DNA of 64,000 nt from Longimicrobiales bacterium (lineage in GTDB: Bacteria > Gemmatimonadota > Gemmatimonadetes > Longimicrobiales > Gaopeijiaceae), in the NCBI GenBank assembly GCA_963664435.2, contig CAXXKM010000003.1, forward strand, positions 1,248,001-1,312,000, in the 5' to 3' direction. Position numbers and translations under genes: made by a program. Below are positions 4,369 through 20,562 of the stretch, in pieces (the stretch's first letter is position 1; the number at the start of each line of letters is the position of its first letter). Under the pieces are notes generated by a model, which saw only the letters and a program-made list of their open reading frames with translations, was not told the DNA's origin and did no database searches.

Positions 4369-7300
4369 TCACCTCCTCCACGCGTAACCGTCCGGAATGC
4401 CCCGGCTGAACAGCGTTTCCAACCTCTGCCCGGCGGCCTGTCCCACCGCATCCGCCGCCGCCTGGGTCGCCGGAGCCGGATCCCGCAGGAATCCGCGCAC
4501 TTCTCCGGTTTGCGCGTCGCGAAGGATGGCCATCGGCTGGTCCGTGGTTTCGTCCAGCACGGCTGAGCCTCCGGGGCCGGATAGCGTGATGCTTGCCAGT
4601 TTGTCCCCCCAGCCCGGTCGGACAGGCAAGGCGAATACAAAGCTGGTCTCCTCACCCTCGGCGTCTCCGATGTGCGGCATATCGAAGGCAAACGAGAAGA
4701 CGGGTGTGCCATCAACGGTCGCACCCTCGATGGTATACTCCCCCCCGGCGACTGGAAGAGAGGGCACGGCGTCAACGACGAACGCGGGATCGAGGTACGG
4801 AACACCATCCTGATCCCGTCCACCCCAGATCAGAAGCGAACGAACGGGCACCGCCTCTGCGGCCATGGCCGCAGAGGCGGTGCCGCCGTTCGCAAGACGG
4901 TGGCTAAGTGCCTTGTTGAAAAAGAAATCGCTGGTCCAGTAGATCCCATGTGTGCAGTAGGACATGACGTCGGCGGCGTGCGGCGTCACCAACGCGTTCC
5001 GTCCGAAGTCGTACCCCCAGGCCCCGATGCTTCCGCCAAAATGCGGGAACCAGGGGTCGACCGTGCGGGGATTGCCACACGGTGCGTGCTTGAGCGAGAG
5101 GTTGTGCCCCAATTCATGGGCGATCGTGGAAGGGTTGCGCGTCGACATGCTCGCCCAGCCAGCGAGGCGGGCGACTCCCGTCGCCGCTGGGCTAGACGAG
5201 AATTCGTTACTATAGTTGGGTTGCCATACGCCCATCCAGTATCCCGAACCGCCCTCCATCACGCGCATCGCGTCTACCTGAGCCAATCTCCTGGAGATGT
5301 CCTGGGTCGATGTGATGACGGGTTGGCGCGCCGAGACAGCGAGTTCCGCTATCGGAAGTAGCATCCGCACGTCGCGGAGCAACTCGTGCCCGTCCGGATC
5401 CGCCGCCATTGCGGAAACGGACTCCACAACGGACGAGTCGGGCTCGGTTTCCCAGAGAAACGGGATAAGGGTCAGGCGCAAGGGCTGCACGGACCGGACG
5501 TCGATTGCCATGCGTCCTTCTTCGGGAATCCGCTTCGTGACTCCAAGCGCGGAGTCCAGCGTCCCTTCAGGATCGACTTCAATCACCATCTCCAAGCCTG
5601 GCACGATGACCCAGTCGGGAATCTCGGCGTTCGCCGACAGCGCAAGATCTCCTTCCATGACCTCTGAGGGGATGAGCCGGGTCGTCGCCGCGATATCGAC
5701 TGAGTGCCGTTCGGCCCCATCGACGAAGAAGGTGGCGCGGACATCGGGCATCGTCGCCGTGCCGGCCTGGGCCGCGGTCACGAAAACGCGCAGCAGCGCC
5801 GGCTTTCCGGCCAGGAGCGGCACGGGATCGTCCCATGACTGCACGCTCTGCGTCAGATACGCCGCCGCCCCACCGTCGCAACGTACCAGGTGGCGGTCGG
5901 CAATGCCCCGGAACCATGCGGCCCAAGCGGCATCCGGCGGCCAGCAGAGCCCGGTGCCTCCCGCCATGAGACGTTCGAGTCCTCCAATGGCCAGAATCTC
6001 GGAAGGCATCGGCCCGGCGAGGTCGGAGTTGTCCGCCAGAATCAGTTGATCTAGCAGGGTGAGGCTGCCGAATTCTGGAGGAACGGGACCGTTCAGCGCG
6101 TTGGATCGCAGGTCGAGATGCTCCAGGTTGGTGGCGCGCCCGAGTTCAGCGGGCAGAGCCCCGGAGAGTGCATTGTTGCCCAGATCCAGCGTGACCAGGC
6201 TGCCGAGACGGCCCAACTCACTCGGAATCGATCCAGAGAGTTGATTGTCGGAGAGCTCCAGCGCCCAAAGGTCGCCAGATCGCCCCAAGTCAGAAGGGAT
6301 CGATCCGGAGATCTCGTTGCCGGAGAGCCGGAGCTCCTGGAGACCGGCGAGGCCGCCGAGTGCCGAAGGAATGCTCCCGCTCAGTCGATTGCGGGAAAAG
6401 TCCACGGCGGACAGGCGGTCTAGCGTGCCAAGCTCGGGCGGAATGCGGCCCGTCAGTTGGTTATCAGCGAGCCGGATGGATATGAGCGCTGAGATCCTGC
6501 CGAGTTCCGAAGGAATGCTCCCGCTCAGTTGGTTGCCGACGAGTTCGAGCCGCTCGAGACGACTCAGATTGCCCAATGCGGCCGGAATGGAGCCTGAGAG
6601 GAAGTTCCATTTGAGGTCCAGCCTGGCGAGATCGGCGAGGTTGGCCAGTTCTTCTGGGATTTCGCCTGTGAGTTCATTATCCCTAAGACTGAGCTGCCGC
6701 AAAGGGACCAAGTCACCCAGCTCCGGCGGGATCGTCCCCGATATCCGGTTTCTGAAGAGGTCAAGTCCTCTCAACTCCGACAACCCGCCAAGCTCCGAAG
6801 GAATGCCGCCGTAGAGCTGGTTCCCCGCAAGGTCAAGCCACTCAAGATGGTCCAATTCACCCAACTCGATTGGGATCCGGCCGGACAACCCGTTGAACGG
6901 TAGCCGCAGTACGACGACCCGGCCGGCGGCATCGGTCTCCACACCGTGCCATTCGGCCAACGGTGCATCGGTGAGCCACCCCGTATTCTCGTTCCAGTTT
7001 CGGCCATCCGCATTCCGGTACAACAGCTCGAGAATGTCACGGTTCGTAAGAGGGGGACACGGCACTCCTGTCCCGGTGTGGCGCGGGATGCCGTTCAGCC
7101 AATCTTGGAAGCCGGCATCGTCCGCCACGCACAGGGACGTGCCCCGGTAGTCGAGCTCCTCCAGTTGCACCTCGGTCAGCGACAGAGGCAACCGGCCGGA
7201 CAAGGCGTTGTCCCCGATCCGCAGCTCCGTGAGGCTGGCCAGCAGGCCAAGCGCCTCCGGAACGTGGCCCGACAACGCGTTGCCGCTCAGATCGAGACCC

Positions 7301-9297
7301 GAGACCCGACCGATCGAATCCGTCCGCACGCCATGCCACCGGTCCAGGTTCTCGTCCTCCAGCCAGCCATCGGACCGCGTCCAGCCGGATCCGTTCGTGG
7401 CCTCGTGGAGGCTCTCCAGCGCGTCGGCATCGATCTCGTCGCAGAATGCGATATCCACCGCCCACTCGATGTTCCCGCGAGCCTCCACCTGCCGCGCCCA
7501 CTCCCTGAACTCGTCCGTCGCGGGCAGGCATACCCCCTCGGTTCGCCGGCAACCTATCGTCTGAAGTCTGTTCAGACCGATAAAACTCAACGGGAGGGAG
7601 CCCGTCAGGAGGTTGTCGGTCAAAGTAAGTCCTTCCAATGCAGCGAGGCTTCCGAGTTCCGTCGGCACCGCGCCCGTCAGTTCATTGTTGTTCAAATTCA
7701 GATTGCGCAGATGGGTCAGTTTCCCCAGCTCCGGCGGGATCGGACCTGTCAGTGCGTTACTCGACAGTGACAGGCTGGTCAGATTGGCAAGACCGCCCAG
7801 CTCCGGTGGGATCGGGCCCGTCAGACCGTTGTCATAGAGCCATAACCACCACAATCCCTCGATGTTGGCCAACTCTGGCGGAATCCGGCCTGTGAGGTTG
7901 TTCCCGTCAAGCAGCAGCCACCGCAGGTTGGCAAGGTTGGCCAGCTCCGGCGGGATCGGGCCCGCCAGATCGTTTTGCCGCAAGTTCAGATCGCGAAGTC
8001 CGGCAAGTCCGCCTAGCGATGGCGGAATCGTACCCGTCAGATTGTTCCATCCCAAATCAAGGTCTGACAACCGCACCAGATCGGCCAACTCCGGTGGGAT
8101 TGGGCCCGTCAGCTCGTTGTCGCGCAAACTAAGCACGCGCAGGTTGGAGAGGTCCCCGAGCTCTTGGGGAATTGTGCCGGTCAGGACGTTCCCTCGGAGG
8201 GAAAGTGTTTCGAGATTCGCAATTCCGCCGAACTCCGGCGGAATAACACCGAACAGTCGGTTCAAACCGAGGTTGAGATGCCGCAAGTTCGCAAGATTCC
8301 CCAGCTCCGAAGGAATGGTGCCCGTGACGGCGTTGATCCGGAGGCTGAGCACCTCCAGGGACGTGAGGCGCCCGAGTTCGGGCGGAATCGGACCCAGGAG
8401 GCCATGAGGCACTTGTTCCCGTCCTTCCCACACGCCGTCTAGACGAATGCCCACCACCCGCCCCGACGCGTCGGTCTCCACCCCGTACCACTCCCCCAAC
8501 GGCGCGTCGGTCAGCCAGTTGGTGTTGTCGATCCAATTCGGACCGTCGGTGGCCTCGTAGAGGGCTACCAGGGCGGTTCGGTCGGTATTCTCCACCGTTG
8601 TGACCTCGGCAGTGCCCGAGTATTCGCTCGCCGTCGCCGTGATCGTAGCCGTTCCTTCGTCCACTCCGGTCACCAACCCCGAGTCGTCCACCCGGGCCAC
8701 GAGCGTGTCGCTCGAAGACCAAACGAATTCCGTCACCGCCGCCACGCCGTGACCGTTCGCGTCGGTCGCCTCGGCCACCAGACGCACCGTGTCCCCGAAC
8801 GCCACCAGGGTGTCCGCCGCGGGCGACAAAACGACTGCGATCACCACCTGGGCCACGGTCACTGCCGCCGTGCCGGAGCCCGAGCCCGCCGTCGCGGTGA
8901 TCGTTGCGGTCCCGTTCCCCGCTGACGTCGCCAGCCCCGTCGCGTCCACCGACGCGACCGAAGCGTTGCTGCTCGCCCACGCGACGGCGGTTCCCGCCAT
9001 CACCTGCCCGTTCTGGTCGCGTACCTCGGCCGTGAACCGGGCCGTCTCTGCGAGGGCGCTCAGTGCGGCAGAACCTGGGCTGACCGCCACCGTGGTGGCC
9101 ACGGGAGTCGGTGGAGGAGCAGGCTCGACGGCGCCATCGCCGCAGGACAGGACCAGCACCGCGGTCGCGGCGATGGCCGAGATCGCGAAGCGCGCGCTCA
9201 AGCGTCCCGGTCGACCATCGCCCCGCCTCCGGCGAATGTGCCAACGGTGCATCCCTGCCCGACCATCTTCGGAAAGCCCTCTCGATTGCATGTCCAT
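4369..9297 (-). CDS. Large lipoprotein: Ig-like (Big_2) domains, plant-type leucine-rich repeat blocks and a C-terminal M66-like zinc metalloprotease
   Basis: LVLSCGDG lipobox; VAWASSNASVASVDATGL and WSSSDTLVARVDDSGLVT Ig repeats; many LxLxxNxLTGxIPPELGxL repeats with three cap motifs (ALYEATDGPNW...WYGV); HELGHNLSLKH and DVMSY. Start chosen from the AGGAG RBS; the ORF is open to 9342. Confidence 0.9.
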   Translation of the reverse strand: MDMQSRGLSEDGRAGMHRWHIRRRRGDGRPGRLSARFAISAIAATAVLVLSCGDGAVEPAPPPTPVATTVAVSPGSAALSALAETARFTAEVRDQNGQVMAGTAVAWASSNASVASVDATGLATSAGNGTATITATAGSGSGTAAVTVAQVVIAVVLSPAADTLVAFGDTVRLVAEATDANGHGVAAVTEFVWSSSDTLVARVDDSGLVTGVDEGTATITATASEYSGTAEVTTVENTDRTALVALYEATDGPNWIDNTNWLTDAPLGEWYGVETDASGRVVGIRLDGVWEGREQVPHGLLGPIPPELGRLTSLEVLSLRINAVTGTIPSELGNLANLRHLNLGLNRLFGVIPPEFGGIANLETLSLRGNVLTGTIPQELGDLSNLRVLSLRDNELTGPIPPELADLVRLSDLDLGWNNLTGTIPPSLGGLAGLRDLNLRQNDLAGPIPPELANLANLRWLLLDGNNLTGRIPPELANIEGLWWLWLYDNGLTGPIPPELGGLANLTSLSLSSNALTGPIPPELGKLTHLRNLNLNNNELTGAVPTELGSLAALEGLTLTDNLLTGSLPLSFIGLNRLQTIGCRRTEGVCLPATDEFREWARQVEARGNIEWAVDIAFCDEIDADALESLHEATNGSGWTRSDGWLEDENLDRWHGVRTDSIGRVSGLDLSGNALSGHVPEALGLLASLTELRIGDNALSGRLPLSLTEVQLEELDYRGTSLCVADDAGFQDWLNGIPRHTGTGVPCPPLTNRDILELLYRNADGRNWNENTGWLTDAPLAEWHGVETDAAGRVVVLRLPFNGLSGRIPIELGELDHLEWLDLAGNQLYGGIPSELGGLSELRGLDLFRNRISGTIPPELGDLVPLRQLSLRDNELTGEIPEELANLADLARLDLKWNFLSGSIPAALGNLSRLERLELVGNQLSGSIPSELGRISALISIRLADNQLTGRIPPELGTLDRLSAVDFSRNRLSGSIPSALGGLAGLQELRLSGNEISGSIPSDLGRSGDLWALELSDNQLSGSIPSELGRLGSLVTLDLGNNALSGALPAELGRATNLEHLDLRSNALNGPVPPEFGSLTLLDQLILADNSDLAGPMPSEILAIGGLERLMAGGTGLCWPPDAAWAAWFRGIADRHLVRCDGGAAAYLTQSVQSWDDPVPLLAGKPALLRVFVTAAQAGTATMPDVRATFFVDGAERHSVDIAATTRLIPSEVMEGDLALSANAEIPDWVIVPGLEMVIEVDPEGTLDSALGVTKRIPEEGRMAIDVRSVQPLRLTLIPFLWETEPDSSVVESVSAMAADPDGHELLRDVRMLLPIAELAVSARQPVITSTQDISRRLAQVDAMRVMEGGSGYWMGVWQPNYSNEFSSSPAATGVARLAGWASMSTRNPSTIAHELGHNLSLKHAPCGNPRTVDPWFPHFGGSIGAWGYDFGRNALVTPHAADVMSYCTHGIYWTSDFFFNKALSHRLANGGTASAAMAAEAVPVRSLLIWGGRDQDGVPYLDPAFVVDAVPSLPVAGGEYTIEGATVDGTPVFSFAFDMPHIGDAEGEETSFVFALPVRPGWGDKLASITLSGPGGSAVLDETTDQPMAILRDAQTGEVRGFLRDPAPATQAAADAVGQAAGQRLETLFSRGIPDGYAWRR

Positions 9298-10416
9298 CTC
9301 TCCTCGCCCTGCCCGCTTCGGTGTTCGGGCTTCCTGTCGCATCGGCCGCGCGCCGGACGTATCACGAGTTATTTAACAATCGTGATCATTGCGCGAGCTA
9401 TCGGCTCGTACGCATGAGATTACCGTGGCCGGAGAACAGCTGGCAAGGACGACCTACCGGTCACCAAGTTGCGTTCAATTCCCTAGCGAGCCTTCAGGGA
9501 GCGGGATGGGGCGTTCTTGCGAGCCGCTGGCGGCGGGGTCCAGCCGTTCGCGTGCCTTCTCGGACTACATCGGCCACGGCGGACAACAGGACGTTCCCCA
9601 CGGGTTGACGTCCTTGCGAACGGCTTTGCAGCGTTCCGGTTATGGAGACACTGAAGCAGCAGTTTCAATCGCACGCGAGCGAAGCCGCGGCCCACCTGCG
9701 CGGGCGGGTGTGGGCGCTCGGTGCCGAGGACAGCCGCCACCGGATCGGGAAGAATAGGGGCTCTGGGCGGCGCTTAGGCGACGGCGTGCGCGAGGGAACC
9801 CCAAGCCGGGATCCCCTCGTTGAAGACGCCGATGCGACGCGTTCAGCCGGAGCTTCCGCGGCCGCTCCGGACTGGCTTGTCGGACGCCGCTAACTAAGGA
9901 CGGGGAGCCAGCCGGACCCGCGCAAACCGGACGGCCATCCCGAAACCGCTCCACCACGGAGACTCCACGGGGGTCGCTCGGCAAGCCGCTGGCGGCGGCG
10001 TCCTTCGGCTGCTTTACGTTATCGAACATCCTCGAACGTTATCGGACAATAGGCGATTATCCGCGAGTTGACTCGTCTGCCAGCGACCCTTCACCGTTCG
10101 GGGATGGAGACGCTGGAACACTCGTTCAACGTGCCGATTAGGGCGCTCCTCGGGCGGGATGGAGAACCCGCGTCGCGCCTCCACTGGCGACGGGTGGCCG
10201 AACCCGAATCCGGCAACCCGTTGCCCCGTCGAGATGTGGGAAATGGCCTATTTCCCACTCGCTTGCGCGGCTTGCCGACACCGTGTTCGGGTTGATGTGC
10301 ATGGAGATCGTGACCAAACAGTTGGAGACCCCGCCGAGGAGCGTCCTCCGGTGTCGATTCGTTCCCCGTCCCAGCGGCTCCGCGAGCCGAGAAGGCTCGG
10401 AAGAGGGGGACCTGCG

Positions 10417-11352
10417 ATGATCGCCCACCTGAAGGGACGGGAACAGGCGCTGGAACCCTTGGGCCTGACCGGCCGCCGGGCCGAATGGATCGCGCTGGCG
10501 AGCCTGCACGGCGGCGTGTTCACCCGCGCGCAGCTTTCGGACTGGCTCGGGGCCAGCCGCTTCAAGGTGCTCCGGCTCATTCAGGCCCTGACGGAGCGAA
10601 GGCTGGTGACCGAGGAGACGGTCGGAGGTCTCAAGGTCTGCCGGGTCTGCGCGCGCGGCATCTACCGGGCGCTCGCTGCCGAGGACATCCGCCACCGAAG
10701 GATTACCTCGACCGAGGTGGTCATTCGCCGCCTGCTCTCTTTCGACTACGTGATCGAGCATCCGGACCTGCCCTGGCTCCCGACCGAGTCGGAGAAGGTG
10801 GGTGCGTGCGAGGCGCTCGGCATCGACCGCTCGCTCATGCCCGTCCGGGTCTATCGGGGCGCGGTCGGCGGTGCGCGGCGCTACTTCCCGCGCGGGATGC
10901 CCGTGGCGCTGGACTCTTGCCGCGCCGTGTTCGTCCACGCCGATCCCGGCTACGACACCTCGACCGCGCTCCACTCGTGGCGGGACCGGCACCGGAGGCT
11001 CTGGGAGGCGCTTAGAGAGGACGGCTTGTCGGTCGAGGCCATCGGGGTCGCAGGCGGCCGGAGGGAACTCGTTCGAGCGCGGACGATCCTCGGGAACTGG
11101 ACCAATGCGGACACGGCCCAACGTTCCGTGCATCCGCCTGGGACCGTCGCCGCGGCCCGGCGCGAGGCCGCACGGGTCGAGAACGCCATCCGGGGCATGG
11201 ACGACGCGACGGTCGAGGAACTGGGCGGTCTCAACGGCTGCCTTCGCCGCCTCGTCGAGATGAGGGAACTGCTCCGTTCGGCCCGTCCCGAAGGCACGAT
11301 CGACGGCCATTCGGTATGGCGGTCGAGCCGTCTTTCCGGAGTCCGAATTTGA
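10417..11352 (+). CDS. Element-associated protein of unknown function with an N-terminal winged-HTH-like region; candidate relaxase/replication protein
   Basis: GAGGGGG RBS then MIAHLKGREQALEPLGLTGRRAEWIALASLHGGVFTRAQL...RRLLSFDYVIEHP...LPTESEKV. Co-oriented upstream of the T4CP and integrase. Function is inferred from context only. Confidence 0.6.
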   Translation: MIAHLKGREQALEPLGLTGRRAEWIALASLHGGVFTRAQLSDWLGASRFKVLRLIQALTERRLVTEETVGGLKVCRVCARGIYRALAAEDIRHRRITSTEVVIRRLLSFDYVIEHPDLPWLPTESEKVGACEALGIDRSLMPVRVYRGAVGGARRYFPRGMPVALDSCRAVFVHADPGYDTSTALHSWRDRHRRLWEALREDGLSVEAIGVAGGRRELVRARTILGNWTNADTAQRSVHPPGTVAAARREAARVENAIRGMDDATVEELGGLNGCLRRLVEMRELLRSARPEGTIDGHSVWRSSRLSGVRI

Positions 11353-11527
11353 GTGCCGTTCGGGGGAGCCCGTTGCCGATCCGGAGGTGTGAAATCGACA
11401 TCGGGGTGCTTGTGCACGGAAATGCCGCTGTGTTGTGCGGAACGTGGGTTCCGCAAGTCTCCGGACGGCTTGGGGTTGGGCCACGGCCCGCGGATCGCCG
11501 GTGCCGATCCGGGTCTCCGGGCCGTGG

Positions 11528-11543
11528 ACGGGAGCGACCCGGC
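11528..11543 (-). repeat. Unoccupied inverted copy of the IS110 target site
   Basis: ACGGGAGCGACCCGGC is the exact reverse complement of the reconstructed empty site GCCGGGTCGCT|CCCGT (11608-11618 + 12973-12977). Confidence 0.9.
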
Positions 11544-11639
11544 CCTTCGGGATGCCTGGTGCGGCATCGGGGCGGTTCGGCATGTGCAGGCCCATGCCGC
11601 CCTCCCCGCCGGGTCGCTTGTCTCTTCCATTCTTGGAGA

Positions 11640-11866
11640 TCCCTGCTTGATTTGCAGGTCCGGGTCACGGGGATGGCCCGGTGTGCTGGATGCCCGCAGA
11701 GGCGAGCGGAGCGAGCCGGAGCGGGCATCCAGCACAGACGGTGGTCGGGCCGTCGGGTCGCTGGCCGCAAGGGCCGTACGGGAGTTTGGTCGCCACCGTC
11801 TTTCCCACGTCCTGAATGGATACTTGAGCATCGAGGCTCGCACGACAAGCACAGGAGAAAGGGAAA
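11640..11866 (+). ncRNA. IS110 bridge RNA (5' hairpins, target-binding loop and donor-binding loop); ends approximate
   Basis: Target-loop stem 11737-11744/11793-11800 encloses LTG CGGGTCGCT (11754-11762) and RTG GTACGGGAG (11776-11784). Donor-loop stem TTTCCC..TCCTG/CAGGA..GGGAAA encloses LDG ATGGATACT (11816-11824) and RDG GACAAG (11844-11849). Confidence 0.88.
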
Positions 11867-11870
11867 GCAC

Positions 11871-12872
11871 ATGAGCACCAGCCGTCGCACCGTCGGGATC
11901 GACATCTCCAAGGACTGGCTCGACGCCTTCGCGGCGCCCGAGGGGAGAGCGTCCCGGTTCTCGAACGACAGGGCCGGCTTCCGGAAACTGATCGCTTGGA
12001 TCGGCTCCGGGATCGACCGGATCGCGTACGAACCCTCCGGAGCCTTCCACCGCGACCTCGAGGACACCCTCCTGAAGGCCGGACTCCCCATGTATGCGAT
12101 CAACCCCTTCCAAGTCCGGTCCTTCGCCCGGTCCCTCGGCCAGCGAGCCAAGACCGATGCCGTGGACGCCCGGATGCTGGCCATCATGGCGTCGGCCATC
12201 GAAGACCTACGCCCGGCGCAGGCGAAGTCCGAGGGGCAGCGCGACCTTGCCGAGCTCCAGCAGATCCGCGACGCGCTGCGCAAGGACCGGACCGCCACCT
12301 CCAACCGCGGCAGGCACTTGCGCACTCCCGTGGGCAAGCGGGTCACCAGGCAGAGGCTGAGGCAGATCGAGCGCCAGCTGAAGCTCATCGACGCAGAGAT
12401 CCGGCAACGGGTGGAGGAGGAGAAGGCGCTGGAGCGCCGGGCCGAGATCCTGACCTCGATCCCGGGCATCTCGGACATCACCGCCGCGGGACTGATCGTC
12501 CACTTGCCGGAGCTCGGCACCCTCACCGGCCCCCGCGCCGCCAGCCTCGCCGGACTGGCCCCGGTCACCCGGGAGTCCGGACACTGGAAGGGACGCAGCT
12601 TCATCCAGGGCGGCAGGCGCCGGGTGCGCCAGTTGCTGTACATGCCCGCAGTGGCTGCGGTCCAGCACAATCCCGACCTCGGGCGCAAGTACGAAGCGCT
12701 CGTGGCTCGGGGCAAGCCGCCCAAGGTCGCCCTGACGGCCGTGATGCGGAAGCTCCTCATCCTCGCCAACGCCCTGGTGCAGCAGGACCGCACTTGGACG
12801 GCGCACCCGCCGCGGGAATACTCCTGCCCGGCCTTCCCGACGCCCAGCCCGGCGGGGAGCGTTCACGGATGA
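11871..12872 (+). CDS. IS110-family recombinase/transposase (333 aa)
   Basis: VGIDISKDWLD, AYEPSG and KTDAVDA (DEDD RuvC-like); SIPGI, AGLAPVTRESG (catalytic Ser context) and GKPPKVALTAVMRKL. Confidence 0.95.
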   Translation: MSTSRRTVGIDISKDWLDAFAAPEGRASRFSNDRAGFRKLIAWIGSGIDRIAYEPSGAFHRDLEDTLLKAGLPMYAINPFQVRSFARSLGQRAKTDAVDARMLAIMASAIEDLRPAQAKSEGQRDLAELQQIRDALRKDRTATSNRGRHLRTPVGKRVTRQRLRQIERQLKLIDAEIRQRVEEEKALERRAEILTSIPGISDITAAGLIVHLPELGTLTGPRAASLAGLAPVTRESGHWKGRSFIQGGRRRVRQLLYMPAVAAVQHNPDLGRKYEALVARGKPPKVALTAVMRKLLILANALVQQDRTWTAHPPREYSCPAFPTPSPAGSVHG

Positions 12873-12958
12873 TCGAGCCGGGCAAGAACGGGCACCGCAA
12901 CGGAAGCATCGCGAGGGGCGCTGCGAGACACGTCGCTCCAAGAAAATCGGGCATCCGC

Positions 12959-12964
12959 TTGACA
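12959..12964 (+). promoter_or_regulatory. -35 box (TTGACA) in the IS110 right end; pairs with -10 CATTCT (11628-11633) only in the circular form
   Basis: The junction reads TTGACA-TGGATACT-TGTCTCTTC-CATTCT, a 17-bp spacer. Confidence 0.8.
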
Positions 12965-13010
12965 TGGATACTCCCGTACCAACGATCCCTCCGGGAAGGG
13001 GGCTTTGCCG

Positions 13011-15032
13011 ATGAGGAACTCGACGGTCGCCGTCATCGGTGCCGCCATCGGAACGGCGGGCGCGCACGCGCTCGAACTGCCGTTCCCTGCCATCGGCGAC
13101 AACCCCTATCTCGACCTGATCGCCCACAACGATCCGGGCATCCACGCCGCCATCCGCATCTGGTACTACGCCTCGCCCGGCGTCGCGGTCATCCTCGCGG
13201 GCGCGCTCGTCCTCTCGGTCTGGCGGGTCTGGTTGCAGCCCCTCTTCAGGTTCCGGCGCAAGGGCAAGTTGCCCAGGTGGCCCACCTCGCCGAACGACGA
13301 CGCACCCTCTCTGGTAATCGGCGAGACGCACCACCCGACCGTGCCGCGCGAGAGCGAGCGGCCCTCGTGGCTCGTCGTCCCCGAAAAAGGGCTCTACACG
13401 GGCGTGCTCGTCGTCGGGGCCGTCGGCACCGGCAAGACCACGGCCTGCATGTACCCGTTCGCCAGGCAGCTTCTCTCCTGGCGCGCGGATGATCACCGCA
13501 AGCGCGCGGGCGCGCTTGTGCTGGAAGTCAAAGGAGACTTCTGCCATCAGGTTCGGAGCATCCTTGGCGAGGCCAGACGAGAGGAGGACTACCTCGAAAT
13601 CGGGCTCGGCGGCTCGTGGCAGTGGAACCCGCTGGACGATCCGCTCCTCGACTCCTACTCGGCGGCCTACGGCGTCGCGTCGCTCATCAACCAACTCTTC
13701 GGCAAGAGTAGGGAACCGTTCTGGCAACAGGCGTACACGAACCTGGTGCGGTGGATCATCGAGGTCCACCGCATCCTGCCGGGCGGCTGGGTCACGCTCC
13801 GGGACATCTACCGCTGCACCGTGGACGCGGAACTCCTGGGGCGGAGGATCGGCGAGGCCCGGAGGCTTGCGGACCGGCTCCGTCCGAAGCGCGCCGTCAT
13901 CTCGCACGAGGACATGATCGCCCACCCGCAGGCGCTGGAGGAGTGGGCGTGGGAGCGCGTGCCCGGCACCGGCAGCGTGGGGTGCCGTCTCGACCCGGAA
14001 CTGGGATCGCGGCTCGACGAACTTGGCGTCGCCTTCGAAACCGAAGAGGCCGACGGAGGCGCGGGCCGGGAGATCGCCGAACAGGTCGAGGCCATCGAGC
14101 GATGGTACTCCCATGACTGGATGGCGCTGGACGCAAAGCTCCGCACCTCGATCGTCGAGGGCATCAGCGTCTTCCTCTCGCTCTTCGACCTGCCGGACGT
14201 GGCCGGGGTGTTCTGCCCGCCGCCACCCACCGAGACTCCGTCCGCCGAGAGCAACGAAACCAATAGCAACAGCCATCCCGTGCCGGGACTTCGCCGGAGG
14301 CTGCCGCCGCTCGCGCAGCTGATCGACGAAGGCAAGGTCCTCGCCCTGAACATGCCCGCCGGAGCGAACCCGGCGCTCGCACGCGCCATCGGCGTGCTGC
14401 TCAAGAATGCCTGGATGCAGGCGCTGCTCCGGCGTCCGGCCGAGGCCGCCCGCCGTCCCGATCGCTACATGCGGCCCGCCGTGTTCATCTGCGATGAGTA
14501 CCAAGCGTTTGCGACCGTCGGACAGGACGATCCGTCCGGCGACGAGAAGGCGTTCGCGCTCACGCGGCAGTGCCGCTGCATCCCGATCGTCGCCACGCAG
14601 TCGATCTCGTCGCTCCGCTCCGTGCTTCCCTCAGGCGAGGCGTGGCGCACGCTCGTCCAGACGCTCCGCACCCGGATCTTCCTGTCGCTGTCCGACGAGG
14701 CGTCGGCCCGGATCGCGTCCGAGATGTGCGGCTCCGTCATGAAGACGCGGGCCTCACACACGTTCACCGAGACCACGGGCAGGCCCGAGTTCTCGCTCCT
14801 CTCCGGTCGCGCCGGAGGGGGACGGGGCACCATCGGCGCGAGCAAGTCGTTCCGGCAGCAGAGGGAGCCGGTGTTCACGCCGCGCGAGTTCGGGCTGCTC
14901 GCCAACTACCAGGCGATCTGCCTCCCCTACGATGGCGTGAAATCGCTTCCGGCCCGCCGCGTCTACCTGAAGCCCCACTACCTGCCGAGGGAGACGGGCT
15001 ACTGGCGGCTTCGCGAGAAGGGGCGGATATGA
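13011..15032 (+). CDS. Type IV coupling protein (VirD4/TraD family)
   Basis: N-terminal TM segments, Walker A GAVGTGKT, LVLEVKGDF, WNPL, EPFWQQA, Walker B FICDEYQ and IVATQSIS. Confidence 0.88.
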   Translation: MRNSTVAVIGAAIGTAGAHALELPFPAIGDNPYLDLIAHNDPGIHAAIRIWYYASPGVAVILAGALVLSVWRVWLQPLFRFRRKGKLPRWPTSPNDDAPSLVIGETHHPTVPRESERPSWLVVPEKGLYTGVLVVGAVGTGKTTACMYPFARQLLSWRADDHRKRAGALVLEVKGDFCHQVRSILGEARREEDYLEIGLGGSWQWNPLDDPLLDSYSAAYGVASLINQLFGKSREPFWQQAYTNLVRWIIEVHRILPGGWVTLRDIYRCTVDAELLGRRIGEARRLADRLRPKRAVISHEDMIAHPQALEEWAWERVPGTGSVGCRLDPELGSRLDELGVAFETEEADGGAGREIAEQVEAIERWYSHDWMALDAKLRTSIVEGISVFLSLFDLPDVAGVFCPPPPTETPSAESNETNSNSHPVPGLRRRLPPLAQLIDEGKVLALNMPAGANPALARAIGVLLKNAWMQALLRRPAEAARRPDRYMRPAVFICDEYQAFATVGQDDPSGDEKAFALTRQCRCIPIVATQSISSLRSVLPSGEAWRTLVQTLRTRIFLSLSDEASARIASEMCGSVMKTRASHTFTETTGRPEFSLLSGRAGGGRGTIGASKSFRQQREPVFTPREFGLLANYQAICLPYDGVKSLPARRVYLKPHYLPRETGYWRLREKGRI

Positions 15033-15130
15033 AGCGCGAGGCACGAGCCGATCACGCAACTGGCGGACAAGCCGCTTCCCCGCGAGCTTTCGGGCAGGCA
15101 GATCGTGCAGTCCATCTTCGGAGGAATCGA

Positions 15131-16294
15131 ATGATGGCACGCACGAAACGAGGTCGGCGCAGCTACAGCGCCGGAGAATGGGGCCGGAACCGGGTCCGGG
15201 TGTTTCCGGATCCGAAAACCGGCCTGCTCCAGATCGAGTGGCGGGAGAACGGTCGCAGGCTGAGCCGGTCGCTGAAACACCGCGATTGGGCTCGCGCGAA
15301 ACGGCAGGCGGATGAAGCCGCCGCGGGCTTCGCGATGTACGAGCCCAACGGCAAGGCCGAAGCCGAGCCCGAGCCGCTCACCCTGGAGAAGCTTTTTGAC
15401 ATCTACCGGGAAGAGGTGACGCCCACCAAGGGTGAGCCCACCCAGTGGCACGACAAGGCCGCGATGCGGATGTTTCTCGGGTTCTTCGGAATAAGCCGAA
15501 ACCCGGCGACGCTGTCGCAACGGGATTGGGATCGGTTCATCCGGGCGCGGCGGTCGGGTAGGATCGGACCGAGCGGAAAGCCGGTGTCCGACCGGACCAT
15601 CGAACACGACCTGAAGTTCCTGATCGCCGTCTTCAATTGGGCGGCCAAGTCGAGGGACGAGCAGGGTCGTTTGCTCCTTGAGTCGAACCCACTCAAAGGG
15701 CTGAAGGCGCCGACGGAGAAGAACCCCACCCGGGTCGTGATGTCCGACGAGGACTATCAGGCGCTTCTTGAAGTATCTCGGCAGGTCGATTGGCGGTTCC
15801 ACGTCGCGCTCGTGCTCGCACACGAGACCGGACACCGCATCGGTGCCATCCGCCACCTGCGGTGGTCTGACATTAGTCTTGAGGTAGGGACTATCCGATG
15901 GCGTGCTGAGCACGAGAAGACCGGTTACGAGCACCGAACGCCGGTGACCGCAGAGGCGCTTGCCGTGTTGGAAGAAGCCGCGAGACGCAGACCGGGAGTC
16001 GAAGATGCTCCGGTGTTGCCCACGCCTACGGATAGCTCAAGATGCTTGAGCCGCTCGCTGAGCTACGCTTGGTGGAACAGGGCGCAGGAACTCGCACGGC
16101 TGGAGCCGAAACCTGGCAGGGGCTGGCACTCGCTGAGGCGCAAGTTTGCTTCGGACCTCATGAACCAGCCCCTCAAGGTGCTGTGTGAACTCGGAGGCTG
16201 GAAGACGGCCCACACCGTGCTCCGGTGCTATCAGAGGGCGGACGAGGCACAGCTGAGGGAGGCGCTCGACAGTCGTCGCCGAATTCGGGCCTGA
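15131..16294 (+). CDS. Tyrosine recombinase/integrase
   Basis: HETGHRIGAI (Arg), EKTG (Lys), WHSLRRKFAS (HxxR) and LGGWKTAHTVLRCYQ (Trp, Tyr); N-terminal arm-binding-like region; GGAGG RBS. Confidence 0.93.
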   Translation: MMARTKRGRRSYSAGEWGRNRVRVFPDPKTGLLQIEWRENGRRLSRSLKHRDWARAKRQADEAAAGFAMYEPNGKAEAEPEPLTLEKLFDIYREEVTPTKGEPTQWHDKAAMRMFLGFFGISRNPATLSQRDWDRFIRARRSGRIGPSGKPVSDRTIEHDLKFLIAVFNWAAKSRDEQGRLLLESNPLKGLKAPTEKNPTRVVMSDEDYQALLEVSRQVDWRFHVALVLAHETGHRIGAIRHLRWSDISLEVGTIRWRAEHEKTGYEHRTPVTAEALAVLEEAARRRPGVEDAPVLPTPTDSSRCLSRSLSYAWWNRAQELARLEPKPGRGWHSLRRKFASDLMNQPLKVLCELGGWKTAHTVLRCYQRADEAQLREALDSRRRIRA

Positions 16295-18968: not shown

Positions 18969-19310
18969 ATGCCTGTCGGACGCAGGACTGCATCGTCCCC
19001 GCCAGCCGCAGTCGACGGGGCCCTGAGACGGCTGGGGCGCAACATCCGCATCGCTCGCTTGCGCCGGCAGCTGCGCATCCAGGACCTGGCCGAGCGCATG
19101 GGGGTTTCGCGGTTCACGGTCGCCGACCTGGAGAAGGGCAAACCGGGCACGTCGGCAAGCGCCTACTTCGGTGCGCTCTGGGCCCTCGGCCTGCTCGGCG
19201 ACGCGGAGGCCCTCGCCGATCCGGATCACGACGAGGAAGGCCGAGTCCTGGAGAGTGCCCGCGCCCCCCGGCGCGCCGCCCGTCCCGGACGCCTCGACAA
19301 TGACTTCTGA
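18969..19310 (+). CDS. XRE-family HTH antitoxin (HipB-like)
   Basis: LGRNIRIARLRRQLRIQDLAERMGVSRFTVADLEKG; overlaps the HipA start. Confidence 0.85.
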   Translation: MPVGRRTASSPPAAVDGALRRLGRNIRIARLRRQLRIQDLAERMGVSRFTVADLEKGKPGTSASAYFGALWALGLLGDAEALADPDHDEEGRVLESARAPRRAARPGRLDNDF

Positions 19311-20562
19311 GCGCGCGTGCTACGTCTTCGTCGTTCTGCCGGGGAAGACGGCGTTCACCGTTGCAGGCAGGTTCCGCGTCTCGGAAACCCGCTCGGGATC
19401 TCTGCTGGGCGAATTCGTCTATGGCCGGAGCTATCTCGGTCGCCCTGATGCCGTCGAACTCGATCCCGTGGAGCTGCGGCTCGCCGAGCGCGTGTACCGG
19501 ACGGGGCGCATGGGAGGTTTCTTCGGCGTCATTCGGGACTCCATGCCGGACCACTGGGGACGCCTGCTCATCGAGAGGCGCACCGGCAGGACGATCCTGG
19601 AGGAATTCGACTACTTGATGGCGGGGCCGGACGACCGCGCGGGCGCGCTCGGGTTCGGCAGGCAGCTGGAGCCTCCCAGGCCCCGGCGGCGCTTCAACGC
19701 GGTGGTCGACCTGTCGCGGCTTCAGGCCGCCGCACACGCCCTCCTGGCCGACAAGTTCGAAGTGACCGGGGCCGTGGCCGACCGCGCCCGCGAGCTTCTT
19801 CTCGCAGGCACATCGATGGGCGGAGCGCGCCCCAAGGCCGTGGTCGAATCCGAGGGCGCGCTGTGGATGGCCAAGTTCGGCCAGGAAACGGAGCGCTGGA
19901 ACCTGCCCCGGGTCGAGCATGGCCTGCTCCGGCTCGCGCGGCGATGCGGGCTGGACGCGGTCGAGAGCCGGGTCGAACGTGTCGGCAATCGCGACGCGCT
20001 GCTCCTGCGCCGCTTCGACCGGAAGTGGGCCGGCGACGGCTATCTGCGCCATCGCATGGCGAGCGCCCTCACCCTGCTGCGTGCCGACGACTCGCCGACC
20101 GGCCGCGGGCGTTGGTCCTACCTCGCGCTCGCGGACGAAGTGAGGCGGGCCAGCGCGGCGCCCCGGGAGGACCTGCGCGAGCTGTTTGGCCGGATGTGCT
20201 TCAACGCCGCGGTCTCCAACCTGGACGATCACCCGCGCAACCACGCGATGCTGGCCCGGGACCGCAGCTGGCGCCTGAGCCCGGCCTACGATCTGGAGCC
20301 GATGCCGGTGGTGGCGGTCGAGCGGCGTGATCTGGCCATGGTCTGCGGGCCGCTGGGCCGCTGGGCCAACAGGTCCAACCTGCTCGGAGCTGCCGGGCGA
20401 TTTCTGCTGGGGCGCGATGAGGCCCGGGACATCTTCAATCGAGTCACGGAGACGATTCGGGGATCCTGGCGCGAAACCATGCGTCGGGCCGGGGTGAGCG
20501 AACGAGACCGCGAACGCATTCGGGACGCGTTTCTCTACGACGGCCTGTTTCTGGATGCGTGA
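19300..20562 (+). CDS. hipA: HipA-family kinase toxin
   Basis: DSMPDHWGR, DRAGAL, GTSMGGARPK, LLRRFDR, SNLDDHPRNH and LSPAYDL. Confidence 0.92.
   Translation: MTSERACYVFVVLPGKTAFTVAGRFRVSETRSGSLLGEFVYGRSYLGRPDAVELDPVELRLAERVYRTGRMGGFFGVIRDSMPDHWGRLLIERRTGRTILEEFDYLMAGPDDRAGALGFGRQLEPPRPRRRFNAVVDLSRLQAAAHALLADKFEVTGAVADRARELLLAGTSMGGARPKAVVESEGALWMAKFGQETERWNLPRVEHGLLRLARRCGLDAVESRVERVGNRDALLLRRFDRKWAGDGYLRHRMASALTLLRADDSPTGRGRWSYLALADEVRRASAAPREDLRELFGRMCFNAAVSNLDDHPRNHAMLARDRSWRLSPAYDLEPMPVVAVERRDLAMVCGPLGRWANRSNLLGAAGRFLLGRDEARDIFNRVTETIRGSWRETMRRAGVSERDRERIRDAFLYDGLFLDA

Follow-up and report, generated by a model that had tools for sequence, protein, structure and literature searches.

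The 64,000-nucleotide stretch of a Longimicrobiales genome analysed here (contig CAXXKM010000003.1; hereafter the window) carries at 11619–12972 what we read, with high confidence from its sequence, as an intact and recently active insertion sequence (IS) of the IS110 group, mobile through the published bridge-RNA mechanism. As such it adds a member to a class described in 2024 and reveals no new mechanism. A preliminary description of the window had called it an IS621-type bridge-RNA element, and every sequence-level feature that could be tested to a clear outcome (protein domains, core dinucleotide, loops, guide–flank covariation and handshake pairing) agrees with that assignment.

Anatomy, recombinase and guide strings

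The element boundaries were set by the divergence of the flanks among copies and by an empty site at C2:901379 in the same genome. They enclose a left end (LE) of 252 nt (11619–11870), a recombinase of 333 amino acids (11871–12872) and a right end (RE) of 100 nt; the length given for the left end in the preliminary description is correct, and the open reading frame (ORF) starts at 11871, not at 11872. The recombinase matches PF01548 (DEDD_Tnp_IS110) over residues 8–148 (7.9e-22) and PF02371 (Transposase_20) over residues 191–274 (3.5e-18), and it scores 209.5 bits against NCBIfam NF033542, "IS110 family RNA-guided transposase" (cut-off 140), a name that the NCBI pipeline would assign to it automatically. 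Its closest solved relatives are IS621 (PDB 8WT6, chain 8wt6_A, E 1.3e-31) and ISCro4 (9T56, E 3.5e-30). The catalytic residues D11/E54/D96/D99/S236-G237 align with D11/E60/D102/D105/S241-G242 of IS621 (the numbering of chain 8wt6_A is offset by +2), whose DEDD and Ser residues are described as essential (Hiraizumi et al. 2024, PMC11208158). Membership of a TIGR-Tas system was considered and rejected, since NF052498 reached only 23.6 bits (cut-off 100), over the coiled-coil region only, and no guide array is present.

The four guide strings proposed for the left end can be read directly from the letters, and all four stand without a mismatch. The left target guide (LTG), CGGGTCGCT at 11754–11762, is identical to the left flank plus core at 11610–11618, and the right target guide (RTG), GTACGGGAG at 11776–11784, is the exact reverse complement of CTCCCGTAC, the core plus right flank at 12971–12979. 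On the donor side, the left donor guide (LDG), ATGGATACT at 11816–11824, equals RE positions 12964–12972, and the right donor guide (RDG), GACAAG at 11844–11849, is the exact reverse complement of CTTGTC at 11617–11622. The LE is thus longer than the RE and holds all four guides upstream of the gene, the arrangement by which the IS110 group is recognised (Durrant 2024, PMC11208160). An 11-nt donor match had also been proposed. The string ATGGATACTTG does match across the RE–LE join, but the extension is specific to this copy and runs into a hairpin stem: its positions 10–11 lie in the closing pair of the inner hairpin of the donor-binding loop (DBL), and position 10 is T in 3 of 34 distinct left ends, with C paired to G in 30 of 34. 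Over 12 nt, the left flank (11602–11613, CTCCCCGCCGGG) is a perfect inverted match to the 3'-terminal part of the recombinase ORF (12848–12859), probably by chance, because the flanks of the other two identical copies lack this match.

Folding of 11619–11871 gave −124.5 kcal/mol (z = −4.4), a stability that none of 200 shuffles reached, and the predicted fold has the two-loop layout that had been claimed, namely 5' hairpins followed by two internal loops, the target-binding loop (TBL) and the DBL, in each of which a pair of guides flanks a small hairpin. The 16-bp stem 11682–11697/11721–11736 is fully (100%) complementary. Three 5' hairpins had been counted; those at 11660–11681 and 11682–11736 are borne out, and the one at 11642–11658 is weakly supported. 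An RNAalifold consensus of 34 distinct left ends (distinct sequences only, with a mean column identity of 89% and hence limited diversity) has the same architecture as the single-sequence fold. Over its 62 pairs, 99.8% of cells are paired, compared with 39–44% when the partners are slid, and double (compensatory) changes occur at eight pairs versus 2.6 ± 1.2 in shuffles, none of 500 of which reach eight. The long 5' stem accounts for six of these eight pairs and the TBL stem for two. In relatives of 71–72% identity, a 14-bp hairpin of unrelated sequence replaces the long hairpin at the same position beside the TBL.

Nowhere in the left end is variation greater than in the guide columns (entropy of 0.92 versus 0.18 bits elsewhere), and among pairs with a scaffold difference below 4% these columns diverge 8–10 times more than the scaffold, a ratio somewhat inflated by the restriction of the alignment to distinct sequences. 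The donor side is constant: the LDG 7-mer ATGGATA occurs in 75 of 75 parsed relatives, ACAAGCACAGG in the DBL is invariant in 34 of 34 left ends, and LDG, RDG and element ends do not vary among the parsed members (75–77). Handshake guides are defined as pairing with position 7 of the non-cognate DNA (Hiraizumi 2024, PMC11208158). In the TBL, the first nucleotide after AG is U in 75 of 75 and faces donor position 7, which is A in 75 of 75; in the DBL, CA is invariant (34 of 34) and its C faces target position 7, which is G in 66 of 66 flanks. The left guides vary at their second core position, which is A and not U (CA) in 39 of 77 LTGs and 55 of 75 LDGs; the window reads CU at both places (11762 and 11824). 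Target and donor cores are always CT despite the CA in the left guides of many relatives (A1 columns about 154 and 221).

Covariation, copies and the proposed mechanism

Relatives were collected by scanning one genome per species, which found 103, of which 74 loci were kept, and nine more distant loci (71–80% identity) were added. Nearly all come from metagenome-assembled genomes of Longimicrobiales/Gemmatimonadota, with 74–99% amino acid identity and 5–15 copies in many genomes. Matches at E ≤ 1e-100 were present in 18 of 401 sampled genomes of the phylum: 15 of 69 in the family of the window, 2 of 30 in one other family and none in the rest. Regular-expression anchors on the invariant scaffold parsed 68 of 79 loci, or 77 of 88 with the distant loci, the 11 misses being truncated before the left end. 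The 68 parsed loci yielded 62 with both flanks and 59 unique insertion events with 24 guide pairs.

A check suggested with the preliminary description, covariation between guide columns and insertion flanks, was run across these relatives, and 0 of 5000 permutations reached the observed match. Over the 59 events, the left target (LT) guide agrees with its own flank at 6.07 of 7 positions, compared with 4.76 ± 0.15 for permuted flanks (0/5000), and the right target (RT) guide at 3.42 of 6 compared with 2.20 ± 0.14 (0/5000). Class B guides (xxGCTGG; 42 events) taken alone give an RT match of 3.10 of 6 versus 2.06 ± 0.16 (0/5000), and class A guides, which resemble those of the window (17 events), an LT match of 6.82 versus 6.46 ± 0.10 (6/5000). 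When the distant loci are included (66 events, 29 guide pairs), LT and RT together reach 9.12 of 12, with 6.18 ± 0.23 for permuted flanks (0/5000). Individual loci illustrate the agreement, such as L005 (guide CCCAG, flank CCCAG) and L093 (guide CTGGCTG/ACCAG, flank CTGGCTG/ACCAG), and between L089 and L086 RT position +3 differs in guide and flank alike. L086–L090 form a shorter branch of 1230 bp, at 71–72% amino acid identity and with two 5' hairpins, not three; their guides are TTTCAGG with CATTTGC or CACTTGC, and the flanks follow at RT +3. Two guide/target co-changes at a single orthologous site (the window versus L017 and L020) were also considered. L017 and L020 lie near an integrase paralog, not a coupling-protein gene as in the window; the sites are therefore paralogous variants, and the claim of an orthologous co-change was dropped.

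By position, the right-side match is 0.73 at +1, 0.68 at +2, 0.71 at +3, 0.61 at +4, 0.37 at +5 and 0.32 at +6. Given the drop at +5 and +6, the 7-nt right pairing highlighted in the preliminary description is not general, and general pairing extends to about +4. The seven positions do match at the window copy, but the four events with the window's guides match at 6, 5, 3 and 3 of the first six, the last three values belonging to the other insertions.

The host genome (3 contigs, 4.51 Mb, 68% GC) holds three copies that are 100% identical over positions 1–1354, plus fragments, according to a genome search, and two diverged full-length copies, L004 (88%, ORF intact) and L005 (87%, ORF frameshifted at residue 102/103). 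The three identical copies imply recent multiplication. They have a common left flank, CCGGGTCG-CT, and the right flanks CCCGTAC, CCCGTCC and CCCCGTC. Since the left flank is shared and the right flanks differ, the guides were not copied from each flank and a motif is read, which on this comparison comprises 7 nt to the left, the core and about 3–4 nt to the right. CT stands at 11617–11618 and at 12971–12972, and is found at both junctions in all three identical copies. At C2:901379, in a paralogous module, the window flanks meet at a single CT without an element between them; the insertion, with a CT on each side, was therefore precise.

The element ends carry the parts of a putative promoter. 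An outward-facing TTGACA at 12959–12964 lies 8 nt from the RE tip, and on a circle its spacer to the CATTCT of the left end (Table 1) would be 17 nt. A predicted −35/−10 pair split across the RE–LE join with a spacer of 16–18 nt is present in 52 of 52 relatives with both ends, although the window's −10 matches at only 3 of 6 positions. In variants with a 2-nt longer RE tail (TTGTGA), the LE head (CATAAT) is 2 nt shorter, and the spacer stays at 17 nt. Such a predicted split promoter fits the published model, in which excision rebuilds a promoter at the circle junction (Durrant 2024, PMC11208160).

Given these features, we propose a model by analogy with IS621 in which the element would excise as a circle and thereby join the −35 TTGACA of the RE to the −10 CATTCT of the LE, driving a structured RNA of ~227 nt from the left end. 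This bridge RNA would bind the DEDD+Ser recombinase, its donor loop pairing with the circle junction ATGGATA-CT-TGTC and its target loop with CGGGTCG-CT-CCCG(TAC), and the recombinase would then exchange strands at the CT core. Transcription, the RNA ends, RNA–protein binding and the recombination chemistry are what we infer from this analogy.

Table 1 Features of the element and its target sites in the window
Feature	Position	Strand	Details
Insertion sequence	11619..12972	+	1354 bp, right-hand CT counted as last two bases
Left target	11610..11618	+	CGGGTCG 11610–11616 and CT core 11617–11618; identical to LTG; left flank common to all three identical copies
-10-like hexamer CATTCT	11628..11633	+	9 nt from LE tip; putative half promoter, complete only on the excised circle
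Putative bridge RNA	11640..11866	+	~227 nt; start inferred from -10 position, end from last DBL stem
5' extension	11642..11736	+	Hairpins 11642–11658 (weakly supported), 11660–11681 and long 11682–11736 with 16-bp stem
TBL	11736..11801	+	Outer stem 11736–11752/11787–11801; LTG 11754–11762; inner hairpin 11763–11775; RTG 11776–11784; handshake UU 11785–11786
DBL	11802..11864	+	Stems 11802–11806/11860–11864 and 11810–11814/11852–11856; LDG 11816–11824; inner hairpin 11825–11840; RDG 11844–11849; handshake CA 11850–11851
Recombinase gene	11871..12872	+	333 aa and stop; RuvC-like DEDD domain residues 8–148, Tnp domain 191–274
Right end	12873..12972	+	100 nt; outward TTGACA 12959–12964, left donor ATGGATA 12964–12970, core CT 12971–12972
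Right target	12973..12979	+	CCCGTAC; reverse complement of RTG positions 11776–11782
Second target copy, unoccupied	11528..11541	-	CGGGTCG-CT-CCCGT; match C3:1259540; inverted partner of the occupied site, ~67 nt away

Contrary evidence, rival explanations and misfitting insertions

Several results weigh against the reading of an intact, recently active bridge-RNA element. Within class A the RT signal is weak (4.24 versus 3.96 ± 0.12, reached by 116/5000 permutations); the weakness of the class A signal reflects the little guide diversity in this class. The relatives are close kin (71–99% amino acid identity), so that the insertion events are not fully independent and the stem covariation comes from few lineages. 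A promoter and terminator scan of the integrated form over 11300–13100 found neither, and the assembled contigs of public runs held no RE-to-LE circle junction. Contigs from RNA libraries of sponge and coral are only 90–95% alike, mostly over the ORF and with possible DNA carry-over; they therefore derive from relatives and are not evidence of expression or habitat. One public-run contig that joins 11616 to 12971 was considered as an excision product and set aside, as it has three flank differences and is probably the empty paralog on C2. The perfect 16-nt target at C2:901379 is still empty, so activity would be at most occasional. A search of 11000–13500 against Rfam 15 at permissive thresholds gave no match at E ≤ 1, the membership of a bridge-RNA family in Rfam 15 not being established. 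Finally, 12 of the 66 unique events score 7/12 or less against their own guides, among them the co-resident, intact L004 (site ATCGTCG-CT/CTCAGGC, guides AGGCTGG/CCCGAC, 5/12 with its own guides) and L091/92, which have a class-A-type site and the guides CTGGCTG/ACCAGAC (4/12 with their own).

The alternative that draws most on these results is that the element is structurally intact but immobile in this host, being silenced or lacking a host factor, so that the matches record past insertions. The missing promoter in the integrated form and the missing circle junction speak for it, as do the six exact CGGGTCGCTCCCG sites that are still present in the genome, one of them a perfect 16-mer, and the frameshift in the paralog L005. 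However, three different sites hold copies without a single difference in 1354 bp, neither the ORF nor any catalytic residue is damaged, and for IS621 weak expression of integrated copies has been published as the normal state (Hiraizumi 2026), so we consider immobility unlikely. It is also conceivable that sites are chosen by the protein or by DNA–DNA homology, and that the folded left end is only an mRNA leader or translational regulator. LTG indeed repeats the flank directly as DNA, and LDG the right end, and the 3' strand of a DBL stem, CAGGAG (11852–11857), lies 14–19 nt before the ATG at 11871, the last stem overlapping the likely ribosome-binding site; bridge-RNA folding could therefore mask translation on the same transcript. 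Nevertheless, the stems keep their pairing through compensatory changes, a hairpin of unrelated sequence holds its position in the distant relatives, the strings of RTG and RDG are reverse complements, reading the opposite strand just as they do in the solved complex of IS621 (PMC11208160, PMC11208158), and the recombinase is homologous to enzymes shown to need RNA, which together leave this explanation very improbable.

The two remaining alternatives have almost nothing in their favour. That the loop–flank matches are coincidental would be easiest to imagine in GC-rich DNA, and in this genome of 68% GC GGGTCGCT alone occurs 302 times. Yet at only 8 of 400,000 random genome sites does the left end contain, anywhere along it, both the 9-mer on the left and the reverse complement of the core with the next 7 nt. 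Restricted to CT sites the count is 4 of 225,104. Some of these sites will be true empty targets. In addition, no permutation out of 5000 reached the observed covariation and three independent insertions share the site; a coincidence is thus hardly credible. If the element belonged instead to the IS1111 group, with a seekRNA in the right end, the superfamily and the Pfam domains would be the same, but the RE here is only 100 nt long and without guides, all four of which lie in the 252-nt LE. Moreover, no subterminal inverted repeat of at least 7 nt between the termini is among the 25 longest of 192 inverted pairs (a 4-bp CCAT/ATGG is visible by eye), and we give this assignment practically no weight. 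We therefore retain the reading of an intact, recently active bridge-RNA element.

The insertions that do not fit their own guides bear on how such elements might spread. Copies at sites unrelated to their guides had been named in advance as evidence that would overturn the bridge-RNA reading; this is not what the three identical copies and 54 of the 66 events look like, but it does describe the other 12, L004 included. A group with the RT guide ACCCAC matches on the left side only. When the best of the 29 guide pairs is picked for each event, for the 12 low-scoring events only, L091/92 reach 11/12 with a class A guide pair and L004 reaches 8/12 with a pair of the type of the co-resident L005, a signal of guidance in trans that is suggestive for L091/92 and weak for the others. 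Possible causes of the misfits are guidance in trans by the RNA of a paralog, half-match insertion, which has been described (Xie et al. 2026 preprint), later exchange of target loops between copies, and decay of old flanks. Up to five guide pairs coexist in one genome. Since the donor loop and the ends are invariant and the target loop changes fast, the bridge RNA of one paralog could carry the circle of another, and the motifs at which the two guide classes aim are structured, repeated and part of one multi-copy module family with an integrase and a type IV coupling protein (T4CP). We tentatively raise, as a minority possibility, a model in which the family is a shared, trans-compatible pool of guides and the IS spreads by riding these modules and retuning its guides to their sequence variants. 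A shared pool would explain elements that sit in sites matching the guides of a paralog, as in L091/92 and L004.

Target modules and relation to known systems

The natural targets are inverted pairs of the motif, which lie in structured intergenic regions of integrase/T4CP mobile modules present in multiple copies. The element of the window sits between an ORF of no known family (10159–11349), whose 397-residue product matches neither Pfam nor NCBIfam, and a VirD4/TraG-like coupling protein gene (13005–15029). The genome has six copies of this ORF+T4CP pair and 28 integrase paralogs (70–80% amino acid identity). At the 17 other class A loci checked, a homolog of the ORF lies in the flanks of six (with weak fragments only in L005) and an integrase paralog in four. 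The motif GGGTCGCTCCC occurs 32 times where composition predicts 14, many of the occurrences forming inverted pairs ~70 bp apart. Of the pair in the window, the element fills the right arm and leaves the left one free; the C2 paralog shows the opposite, with L002 in the left arm and nothing in the right. Left flanks fold at −7.5 kcal/mol, compared with −5.9 kcal/mol for distant controls (p = 4e-4; right flank p = 0.018); the sites are mutual repeats, and this difference is not used as evidence.

IS621 of E. coli (Durrant 2024, PMC11208160; Hiraizumi 2024, PMC11208158; PDB 8WT6) is a distant homolog at the protein level (113 bits over residues 7–304). As described in these papers, it shares with the present element the DEDD RuvC-like and Ser Tnp domains with five aligned catalytic residues, an RNA in the longer left end, a CT core, a 9-nt LTG (seven plus core), inclusion of the core within RTG, LDG and RDG, a TBL followed by a DBL, a promoter rebuilt on the circle (predicted here) and the position-7 handshake. 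The differences concern (i) the region 5' of the TBL, with two or three hairpins here and a single 5' stem-loop in IS621; (ii) the length of the RNA, ~227 nt predicted here versus 177 nt; (iii) right-target pairing, which reaches about +4 generally and +7 at this copy, whereas in IS621 it covers 2 nt beyond the core; (iv) the target, a mobile-module motif here and a REP (repetitive extragenic palindromic) element for IS621; and (v) the host, a Longimicrobiales (Gemmatimonadota) genome of 68% GC, unlike E. coli. Diverse bridge-RNA structures and longer natural RTGs have already been reported (Durrant 2024, PMC11208160). ISCro4/IS622 (Perry et al. 2025, 10.1101/2025.05.14.653916; PDB 9T56), the second-best solved relative, has the same architecture but is an enterobacterial ortholog that was engineered for human cells, in work that screened 72 orthologs.

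With respect to target choice, ISPpu10 of Pseudomonas putida is reported to insert in multiple copies of a conserved intergenic sequence with a stem-loop 5' of the target (Na et al. 2026, 10.64898/2026.03.19.712850). The left flanks here also tend to fold, but the repeats belong to integrase/T4CP modules. The IS1111-group seekRNA elements (Siddiquee et al. 2024, PMC11187229) share the recombinase superfamily and RNA-guided site choice, and some members specialise on the sequences of other mobile elements, such as IS4321/IS5075 on transposon ends. That group is described as having its RNA in a long right end and subterminal inverted repeats of 7–17 bp (PMC11208160), neither of which was found here. 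Our literature search found no paper with both IS110 and Gemmatimonadota in its title or abstract, and the earlier label of an uncharacterised ortholog stands on that basis.

As the mechanism is already known, the value of the family lies in the material. It provides (i) a natural series of guide reprogramming, in which 29 target-guide pairs sit on a near-constant scaffold and a single genome offers filled as well as empty sites. From this series one learns that natural pairing uses positions −7 to −1, the core, and +1 to about +4, and at what pace guides are replaced compared with the remaining RNA. (ii) About a fifth of the insertions misfit their own guide, which bears on the debate over off-target activity and trans guidance in bridge recombinases. 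(iii) Documented bridge-RNA elements are extended to a Gemmatimonadota lineage of 68% GC, which may interest searches for longer natural right-target pairing. (iv) In this element, an insertion sequence has specialised on motifs carried by other mobile elements.

Some further observations concern the modules and the class B targets. The segment 10159–16291 of the window resembles a mobile module, comprising the 397-residue ORF, a structured intergenic region with the two inverted IS targets, the T4CP gene and a tyrosine recombinase gene (about 15098–16291). An 8-bp hairpin with a loop of 3 nt immediately precedes the class B target GTAGGCTGGCT, for example at C1:1459175, C2:846598 and C3:1148867. 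These three copies are without an element, and the sole class-B-like copy in this genome, L004, lies elsewhere. The pattern GT[AC][GT]GCTGGCT occurs 27 times in the genome, about 18 of them in the hairpin context, and those compared are near integrase paralogs. The class B insertions L035, L042, L043, L051 and L072 lie in short (GCTT)n-like runs, such as GGCTTGCTTGCT-IS-TGCTTGCTTGCC, which resemble the left target and the left tip of the element. Elsewhere in the window, 4369–9342 (minus strand) encodes a 1657-residue protein that combines many leucine-rich repeats with Big_2 domains and weakly matches Peptidase_M66, and 19171–20559 (plus strand) holds a gene for a HipA-like kinase.

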